Source: Escherichia phage LF82-1
Direction: 5' to 3' (one strand)
Sequence record: PV648359
Length of the DNA stretch: 64,000 nucleotides
Both the position numbers and the translations under genes were made by a program. Shown one piece after another: positions 33,390 to 33,979 of this stretch (within the stretch, counting starts at the first letter, position 1; the number at the start of each line of letters is the position of its first letter). Below the pieces are notes generated by a model that was not told the DNA's origin, did not search any database, and saw only the letters and a program-made list of their open reading frames with translations.

Positions 33390-33947
33390 TTAGTTTTTGT
33401 AATATCGTAAAGGGTTGATATGGAATGAAAGCATTGCGCGTGGAATAGGACGTCTCAAAAGACTCTTAAGTTTCCAACCACAGTAAACACGCAGATAAAA
33501 TGTAATACCACCAACCTTAAGATAAGGTATAGCAGCGAATAATCCCCATGCAGACTCGTTCCAAACTAAAAGATATCCATGATGTGCTGGGTCAGGAGAT
33601 CCTGATTTAGTTTCGGCGTTGCCTTTATAGTGCCATTTTGATGAAGCTTCGCGACCTAAAACATGATACGAAAAATTATATGCTTTGTTGCGCCATAACC
33701 AAGCTACGCGTTGAGCATATTTACCTATAACAGGAATTTTACGTATTTTAGACCAACGTTCAACATGGCCACGGTCACCATCGATAGGATTATCGTAAGT
33801 CATCATCCAGTCAAAGCCATAAGGTAGTTTACCGGTTTTTTCACTATGGAATGGAACTACAAATGGTGCTAGAATAATTGCTAAAATCGCTGCGATCCAA
33901 TCTATAGGAACAAGAACAACCCAACTTACATATTTTAAAAATTTCAT
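33390..33947 (-). CDS. Membrane protein (185 aa) preceded by a late promoter
   Basis: N-terminal hydrophobic helices; TATAAATA 25 nt upstream; terminator downstream. Confidence 0.55.
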   Translation of the reverse strand: MKFLKYVSWVVLVPIDWIAAILAIILAPFVVPFHSEKTGKLPYGFDWMMTYDNPIDGDRGHVERWSKIRKIPVIGKYAQRVAWLWRNKAYNFSYHVLGREASSKWHYKGNAETKSGSPDPAHHGYLLVWNESAWGLFAAIPYLKVGGITFYLRVYCGWKLKSLLRRPIPRAMLSFHINPLRYYKN

Positions 33948-33971
33948 ATATCCTCTCTTAGTTTACAAGGA

Positions 33972-33979
33972 TATTTATA
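33972..33979 (-). promoter_or_regulatory. Late promoter TATAAATA (minus sense)
   Basis: Plus-strand tatttata; fused to the upstream terminator U-run. Confidence 0.55.

Follow-up and report, generated by a model that had tools for sequence, protein, structure and literature searches.

The 64,000-nucleotide stretch of Escherichia phage LF82-1 (PV648359) analysed here, which we call the window, comes from an RB69-like T4-type phage, a Mosigvirus: Escherichia phage LF82-2 (PV648360) is 100% identical to the window region, and many RB69-like phages of that genus match it at 96-99% identity. We examined a short unit on its minus strand, directly 3' of the antiholin gene rI, whose single open reading frame (ORF) encodes a 185-aa protein of the domain family DUF7338. 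An earlier sequence-only reading had taken this ORF for an isolated late gene, encoding a membrane protein, with a late promoter in front of it and terminators on both sides. The gene is real: the ORF is also a coding sequence (CDS) in the annotation of the identical record PV648360, and its product matches the family over its full length. In the direction of transcription the unit consists of the following elements.

33981..34008, minus strand: upstream copy of a 28-bp repeat, a putative intrinsic-terminator hairpin (GAAA loop, 5 U; -16 kcal/mol, z -3.15) that would end the rI.1-rI unit; left cassette border

33979->33972, minus strand: T4-type late promoter motif TATAAATA, lying 24 nt ahead of the start codon (ATG at 33947)

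33957-33951, minus strand: Shine-Dalgarno sequence GAGAGGA, read off the sequence

33390..33947, minus strand: CDS of 185 aa from the ORF list, DUF7338 (Pfam PF24027, E 8.6e-62; phrog_2143, E 1.4e-78)

33358..33385, minus strand: downstream copy of the repeat, a putative terminator hairpin (6 U; -17.9 kcal/mol, z -3.5) that begins 4 nt past the stop codon; right cassette border

The two flanking hairpins are identical over 28 of 28 positions and form a direct repeat, AAAAAGCCCCAACCTTTCGGAAGGGGCT, spaced 623 bp start to start. As minus-strand RNA each copy folds into a G+C-rich stem capped by a GAAA loop, with a run of 5-6 U behind it (z -3.2 to -3.5 against shuffles). With a stable G+C-rich stem and a U-run, both have the makeup of intrinsic terminators and would be expected to work as such, so the proposal of terminators on both sides holds up. 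A consensus terminator scan missed them because the stem has an internal 2x2 mismatch. Three occurrences of the hairpin pattern are found in the window, against 0.00 expected by chance.

The octamer TATAAATA is intergenic, on the coding strand and a short distance 5' of the start codon, with the Shine-Dalgarno sequence in between, as in T4-type late units; the spacing had been called correctly. Four of its seven copies in the window sit 25-36 nt 5' of a same-strand start codon, an interval into which 2.7% of strand positions fall (P = 1.7e-5). Furthermore, the octamer is kept at -34 in 74%-identical cassettes of Dhakavirus (four loci). A promoter scan found no sigma-70-like promoter upstream of the DUF7338 ORF. 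The order of terminator, TATAAATA, Shine-Dalgarno sequence, gene and terminator is thus the anatomy that had been claimed for an isolated late unit; from this anatomy we infer that the gene is expressed late in this phage.

We compared the locus with those of related phages using a query of 1,651 bp spanning the DUF7338 unit. Twenty-two phage records cover the query fully and carry the insert. RB69 and about 140 other Mosigvirus records match it in two pieces spanning 1,028-1,031 bp, about 623 bp shorter, and this indel has the size of the repeat spacing. The alignment with RB69 displays a single hairpin followed directly by the early-type promoter TTTACT-16-TATAGT, with no late promoter and no ORF. 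Dhakavirus MX01 carries the whole cassette, hairpin to hairpin, at 74% identity at a different locus, the tRNA-end site upstream of e.8; this copy has both hairpins (with two compensatory changes) and TATAAATA. Likewise, the DUF7338 gene is found at the tRNA site in Gaprivervirus RZ and in Gelderlandvirus STP4-a, in the latter two small genes upstream of the endolysin gene. The homologous site in the window, which holds the DUF7338 cassette in Dhakavirus and Gaprivervirus, carries the third hairpin.

49198..49235, minus strand: third copy of the hairpin (pattern search), then TATAAATA; located at the end of the tRNA/structured-RNA region, 5' of a 208-aa ORF

Together these comparisons indicate that the unit is a 623-bp insertion/deletion cassette, moved, as its borders suggest, through its stem-loops. 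Recombination between repeated stem-loop/promoter elements is known to delete, insert or circularise single accessory genes in T4-type phages, and mini-circles have been documented for these early-promoter stem-loop (PeSL) cassettes (PMC2839356, PMC4122927). The locus described here likewise holds an ORF between repeated stem-loops, with a single element at the empty site of close relatives. Its downstream element includes TTTACT-16-TATAGT, and in the upstream element the late promoter takes that place.

The slot after rI varies among these phages, being occupied by rI.-1 in T4, by nothing in RB69 and by DUF7338 here. We looked for homology between the DUF7338 protein and T4 rI.-1 and found none. 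The adjacency to rI is recent and restricted to about 22 records, and the simplest explanation is that it is a consequence of hairpin homology, which is probably the case. Co-location with a lysis-inhibition gene is suggestive and not evidential. A functional coupling behind the adjacency was set aside as unsupported, because the rI site is one of just three hairpin copies in the window.

The protein matches DUF7338 from residue 1 to 184 with 208.4 bits, against a cut-off of 27; its PHROG is annotated as of unknown function. DUF7338 is already a catalogued family, and a literature search on it found no paper. A profile search of 1.84 billion representatives returned 749 clusters (50% identity) at E <= 1e-3; among the best 150 of these 749 the proteins are mostly 150-215 aa long, and DUF7338 was the sole domain in the 70 members that we scanned. 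An alignment of 171 representatives reveals conserved positions at P28, L41-P42, W47, T50, D52, G57-D58, W83, R86-N87 and Y90, and further ones at F92, G98, G109, G124, G157-W158-K159 and P179. The family motifs TxDN..GD, W.(W)RN..Y.F and GWK, conserved in at least 80-99% of the representatives, are all present in the window protein.

Several N-terminal transmembrane helices had been expected from the sequence. Hydropathy and an AlphaFold2 model find just one, a single hydrophobic helix at residues ~7-33 (9-33 in the model), strongly hydrophobic with a mean hydropathy of 2.5. The model, built on a 33-sequence alignment (pLDDT 95.4, pTM 0.84), combines this 25-residue N-terminal helix with several short helices and a five-stranded sheet. 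Topology prediction, which had been suggested as a check, favours an N-in/C-out orientation in 91% of the 171 representatives, with flanking charges of +2.27/-0.08 on the N-terminal side of the helix and +1.74/-2.21 on the C-terminal side. The ~150-aa basic alpha+beta domain is accordingly predicted to lie in the periplasm; the soluble domain of DUF7338 proteins has an isoelectric point of about 10. Most likely, then, the window protein is a type II (N-in/C-out) inner-membrane protein whose basic periplasmic domain acts at the membrane surface.

Searches beyond the family gave little. Foldseek against PDB returned no chain at E < 1, in a library whose coverage of the solved T and RI domains was unchecked (best E 1.5, TM-scores ~0.1-0.2); entries of the hotdog fold (thioesterase/FabZ) among these hits were discarded as noise. 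Against BFVD it returned family members only, one of them labelled 'Envelope protein', a label that is unsupported. A search of PDB chain sequences with the family profile gave no match, Pfam at E <= 0.1 gave nothing beyond DUF7338, and neither NCBIfam nor PADLOC matched the window protein. The close-family motif, run against 185,579 species genomes of bacteria and archaea, gave one locus. It lies on a 178,077-bp contig of a Flagellimonas marina assembly (NZ_JBHSCL010000010.1; our locus L007), which has the size of an RB16/Slopekvirus-like T4-type genome and encodes a 66%-identical homologue; the contig is probably a phage genome or contamination inside that assembly. Since the single hit falls on a phage-like contig, the family appears to be restricted to phages, and its close members are essentially absent from bacterial genomes.

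The genomic company of relatives gives indirect support to a link with lysis. Every relative of at least 55% identity (Dhaka-, Gapriver-, Gelderland-, Karam- and Slopekvirus, RB16-like phages and Felixounavirus) has the gene in or beside a tRNA cluster; the tRNA region of T-even phages borders on that of the e lysozyme. For more divergent relatives we collected 153 loci, which fall into 36 clusters at 60% identity; the locus search was run with sub-alignments A3 and A5, the diverse alignment A4 being too divergent for it. In 10 of the 36 clusters (65 of the 153 loci), the three genes to either side of the DUF7338 gene include a holin, endolysin or spanin gene in the same orientation. These neighbourhoods are listed below under our own locus labels.

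L066/L068: DUF7338, holin (PF05105, E 2e-21), endolysin (phrog_7, 8e-43)

L147, L116: DUF7338, small membrane protein, GH108 endolysin

L142 (Aeh1/phiAS5-like): DUF7338, lysozyme, Rz-like spanin; DUF7338 directly 5' of the lysozyme gene

L059: DUF7338, endolysin, small membrane protein, Rz-like spanin (2.5e-12)

L095: endolysin (9e-69), DUF7338, HNH insert, spanin

L119: DUF7338, lipoprotein, transglycosylase-type endolysin, spanin (5.6e-17)

L063/L079 (jumbo phages): two-helix protein, unknown, GH19-like endolysin, DUF7338

L115: weak spanin match

The insert in L095, a metagenomic phage contig, is an HNH homing-endonuclease gene (4682-5404) between DUF7338 and the Rz-like spanin gene of the lysis cassette.

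Functional data exist for homologues in two phages. Gene 153 of Bas63 encodes a protein 60% identical to the window protein (E 1e-78). In the PhageMaP data it scores +0.84 to +1.85 in S17 and +0.75 to +0.81 in MG1655, on a scale where essential genes score -2 to -4 and gene 29 ('holin*') about -1.5 in MG1655. Such positive scores indicate that the homologue is dispensable under laboratory conditions and is not a sole or essential holin; the PhageMaP main text gives no conditional phenotype for gene 153. In Felix O1, ORF48 encodes a protein 61% identical to the window protein, and mass spectrometry of the virion did not detect this product, gp48 (PMC3185647).

We propose that the unit encodes a late, non-essential, lysis-associated accessory protein of the inner membrane on a mobile 623-bp cassette, placed next to rI by recombination at hairpins; as a whole, this reading seems to us evenly poised between right and wrong. 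The cassette would have entered the terminator 3' of rI via homologous recombination between conserved G+C-rich stem-loop copies, the PeSL/mini-circle route of modular shuffling as known for T4-type phages. Transcription would start a few bases 3' of TATAAATA, directed by gp55, the late sigma factor of the phage, and would halt at the second hairpin, leaving the unit insulated on both sides, from rI and from the early promoter of the next gene. The product would then be a dispensable helper in host lysis that works on the periplasmic side of the inner membrane and accompanies holin and endolysin, whether it regulates lysis or acts on the envelope. A role of this kind, as regulator or as envelope-acting helper, is the best supported of the functions considered, at or slightly under an even chance. 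We do not suggest that the product is itself a holin. A broader idea is that DUF7338 forms a widespread, unrecognised class of phage lysis proteins with a new fold, enzyme-like and tethered to the inner membrane, which would act on a lipid-linked or wall component from the periplasmic side and tune or help envelope breakdown together with holin, endolysin and spanin; this we offer tentatively, thinking it less than likely.

Several observations weigh against this proposal. No lysis neighbour is present in 26 of the 36 divergent clusters, and the binomial P for at least 10 of 36 is 0.002 at an assumed background of 10% and 0.035 at an assumed 15%, the background not having been measured. The junction of tail-fibre and lysis genes commonly hosts unrelated accessory genes, and the lysis-neighbour signal could be due in part to this junction being a permissive site. 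The contexts of three distant members, taken from precomputed Pfam assignments, were uninformative, their neighbours having no Pfam matches. Similarity to known lysis proteins was found neither by sequence (Pfam, PDB profile) nor by structure (Foldseek against PDB). The suggestion of a role in lysis timing gains indirect support from the co-oriented lysis genes in the 10 clusters; against it, the adjacency to rI is recent, no holin, antiholin, spanin or exclusion family matches the protein, and the Bas63 homologue is dispensable.

As to timing, the late assignment comes from sequence alone, and TATAAATA is not enriched in the window as a whole (7 copies, 7.7 expected). Relatives differ in what precedes the gene. 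Karamvirus has CATAAATA after a hairpin upstream of it. Slopekvirus and RB16-like homologues have a hairpin and then directly the Shine-Dalgarno sequence, without TATAAATA, which is also lacking in Felix O1-like homologues, where the ORF begins ~20 nt past one tRNA and ends 8-9 nt before the next. Late timing is therefore no trait of the family. The Felix O1-like mRNA is presumably released by tRNA processing; at these loci (L004, L025-L047, L087, L173) the ORF is embedded in a tRNA array and the next tRNA is tRNA-Gln. Felix O1 ORF48, for its part, belongs to the class with maximal expression at 5 min by reverse-transcription PCR (PMC3185647, Table 3). That timing table is weak and noisy, because the major capsid gene falls in the same 5-min class, and the phage in question itself lacks TATAAATA at ORF48.

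Unlikely in our judgement, and the strongest competitor as to function, is a superinfection-exclusion or envelope-modifying 'moron', whose periplasmic domain would alter or mask lipopolysaccharide, peptidoglycan or a lipid-linked precursor and so block later-arriving phages or the adsorption of progeny to debris, the lysis and tail-fibre neighbourhood being just a permissive hotspot. It would suit a gene that is accessory (present or absent among close relatives), lies on a self-contained cassette and is dispensable in Bas63. The conserved polar residues T50, D52, D58, R86, N87 and K159 suggest a ligand-binding or catalytic site over a protein-protein interface, and, judging by their sequence positions, they would sit close to the end of the domain that is nearest the membrane. 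Genes for tail fibres and for tail-fibre assembly often lie upstream of the divergent DUF7338 genes, and one group of loci adjoins an integrase gene. However, PADLOC and NCBIfam gave no match to the protein and Pfam gave DUF7338 only, and several strictly lytic jumbo and T4-like phages hold the gene between, or directly beside, endolysin and spanin genes. Moreover, a late-only promoter fits exclusion poorly; in T4, superinfection exclusion (imm, sp) begins early. Superinfection exclusion, which the sequence-only reading had offered next to lysis timing, is neither supported nor excluded by this evidence.

A second alternative concerns timing only and is compatible with any functional reading: the gene might be expressed early or constantly, through transcripts that run past the rI hairpin or from a promoter that escaped recognition, and TATAAATA would be incidental or minor. 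The Felix O1 expression class, the homologues that sit directly behind tRNAs or a terminator without the octamer, and the lack of enrichment across the window all speak for it. Set against these are an octamer held at the same distance despite 26% nucleotide divergence, the same module of hairpin plus TATAAATA in front of another ORF (49198-49235), the positional bias of the octamer, the strong hairpin immediately 5' and the failure of the promoter scan to find a sigma-70-like site. We regard early or constant expression as improbable.

More doubtful still is a passenger gene that has no role here, or one tied to the tRNA/stable-RNA region, and hitch-hikes with the recombinogenic hairpins that border tRNA clusters. 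The tRNA clusters around all the closer relatives would agree with it, as would the fact that most Mosigvirus records do without the gene. Yet the 749 clusters, the intact length and the near-invariant residues, of which the latter two indicate purifying selection on protein function, argue otherwise, and distant relatives have no nearby tRNA. In T-even phages, in addition, the tRNA link and the lysis link coincide, because the tRNA region adjoins the lysozyme region.

T4 holin T is anchored by a single transmembrane helix with its N-terminus inside and exposes a large domain to the periplasm, and T4-like phages carry its gene, t. That the DUF7338 protein is such a T-type holin, serving as a second or alternative hole-former, is very improbable: its predicted topology and size resemble those of T and in L059 and L142 its gene lies directly 5' of the endolysin gene with no membrane protein between, but most cassettes have a separate holin candidate (such as the PF05105 protein of L066/L068), the window phage belongs to a group that carries t, Bas63 gene 153 is dispensable and gene 29 is not, no Pfam holin family, PDB sequence or PDB chain at Foldseek E < 1 was matched, and the strong polar conservation of the soluble domain is atypical of holins. 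Some records, and the PhageMaP table, do label homologues 'holin'; these labels come with no stated or cited evidence, and the Bas63 fitness data contradict them.

The genes around the unit all lie on the minus strand, in the transcription order tk, rI.1, rI, DUF7338 ORF, mobD.2a-like gene and more small ORFs.

34570-35151, minus strand: tk

34567..34574, minus strand: second TATAAATA (by motif position), over the end of tk and 24 nt 5' of rI.1

34330-34542, minus strand: rI.1

34015..34317, minus strand: rI antiholin gene (Pfam Antiholin PF24205, E 3e-24; PHROG lysis inhibition), upstream neighbour of the DUF7338 ORF; its own terminator is the insertion site

33318..33345, minus strand: sigma-70-like (early-type) promoter TTTACT-16-TATAGT with extended TG (promoter scan), for the mobD.2a-like gene; with the downstream hairpin it makes a PeSL-like composite

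33111-33290, minus strand: mobD.2a-like gene, next after the DUF7338 ORF

The octamer at 34567..34574 is likely the late promoter of the adjacent rI.1-rI unit, and this pair looks like a late unit of its own that ends at the hairpin 33981-34008. With TATAAATA before rI.1 and a hairpin after rI, two late units would stand back to back in the 'early' region.

Four further features of the window were recorded. The 208-aa ORF behind the third hairpin and its TATAAATA (48536-49162, minus strand) belongs to phrog_2280, which has no assigned function; its N-terminus, MYTFNEFLAE, resembles the leader of T4 internal head proteins. Between a tRNA-Met/tRNA-Arg pair (with an adjacent ORF) and the third hairpin lies a non-coding stretch of ~300 nt (49236-49540, minus strand). 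Its predicted folding is much more stable than that of shuffled sequences (z -3.7), and it includes a tRNA-like T-arm, CCGGGUUCGAAUCCCGG; MX01 conserves the 3' part of the stretch, and Rfam gave no match above noise on it. The stretch may be the counterpart of the small stable RNAs encoded in the tRNA region of T4. A 162-aa ORF at 41089-41577 (minus strand), a 'hypothetical protein' in PV648360, matches endolysin/T4-lysozyme PHROGs (phrog_7, E 6e-29), occupies the expected place of gene e and was taken as the e gene of the window. Lastly, two TATAAATA motifs point apart within a single intergenic region at 55749-55771 (both strands), flanked by a minus-strand gene that the LF82-2 record annotates as head closure protein and by a baseplate wedge subunit gene on the plus strand; from its arrangement this looks like a divergent late promoter pair.

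How does the unit compare with known systems? Like i-spanins of the Rz type, DUF7338 proteins are type II inner-membrane proteins of about 150-190 aa encoded in lysis cassettes. In contrast to these, their predicted domain is globular alpha+beta and not a coiled coil, and separate Rz-like spanins occur in the same cassettes; the locus has no o-spanin partner ORF, and the protein has no PHROG spanin match. With the T4 holin T and antiholin RI the protein shares a single hydrophobic segment near the N-terminus and a C-terminal domain in the periplasm, as well as context, its gene lying immediately 3' of rI and family members lying in lysis cassettes. It differs from them in having no sequence or PDB structural match and in the dispensability of its Bas63 homologue. 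The antiholin RI family PF24205 gave no profile match, and a helix of hydropathy 2.5 is unlike a signal-anchor-release segment. T4 rI.-1 shares the position directly 3' of rI; it is an unrelated 128-aa sequence without a hydrophobic anchor. Altogether, DUF7338 is a specific candidate for an as yet uncharacterised accessory role in lysis, for which natural plus and minus variants exist in E. coli phages.

As a genetic element, the unit resembles the 'morons' of lambdoid phages, self-contained promoter-gene-terminator units that add a non-essential gene and leave the neighbours undisturbed. Unlike in morons, the flanking regulatory sequences here are repeated and are the apparent vehicle of insertion, and the host phage is strictly lytic. 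The likeness is closest to the PeSL and ORFan cassettes (Arbiol et al. 2010, PMC2839356; Comeau et al. 2014, PMC4122927), in which a single accessory ORF lies between repeated G+C-rich GGGG...CCCC stem-loop terminators near promoters, a single element remains at the empty site of close relatives, and the location is intergenic, in the hyperplastic early region. The downstream border, a stem-loop with a sigma-70-like early promoter, is shared as well. The repeat differs, being a 28-bp hairpin plus T-run here and a composite of ~100 bp there, and mini-circles are known there, whereas the present case is read from sequence. Stem-loop cassette shuffling is an established mechanism, of which the cassette, with its identical borders, exact indel and alternative hairpin site, offers a very clean natural case in T-even phages. 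The upstream border sets it apart, for there the stem-loop is paired with the late promoter TATAAATA and not with an early one; the mechanism described for early-promoter PeSL elements may thus also spread late-expressed genes.

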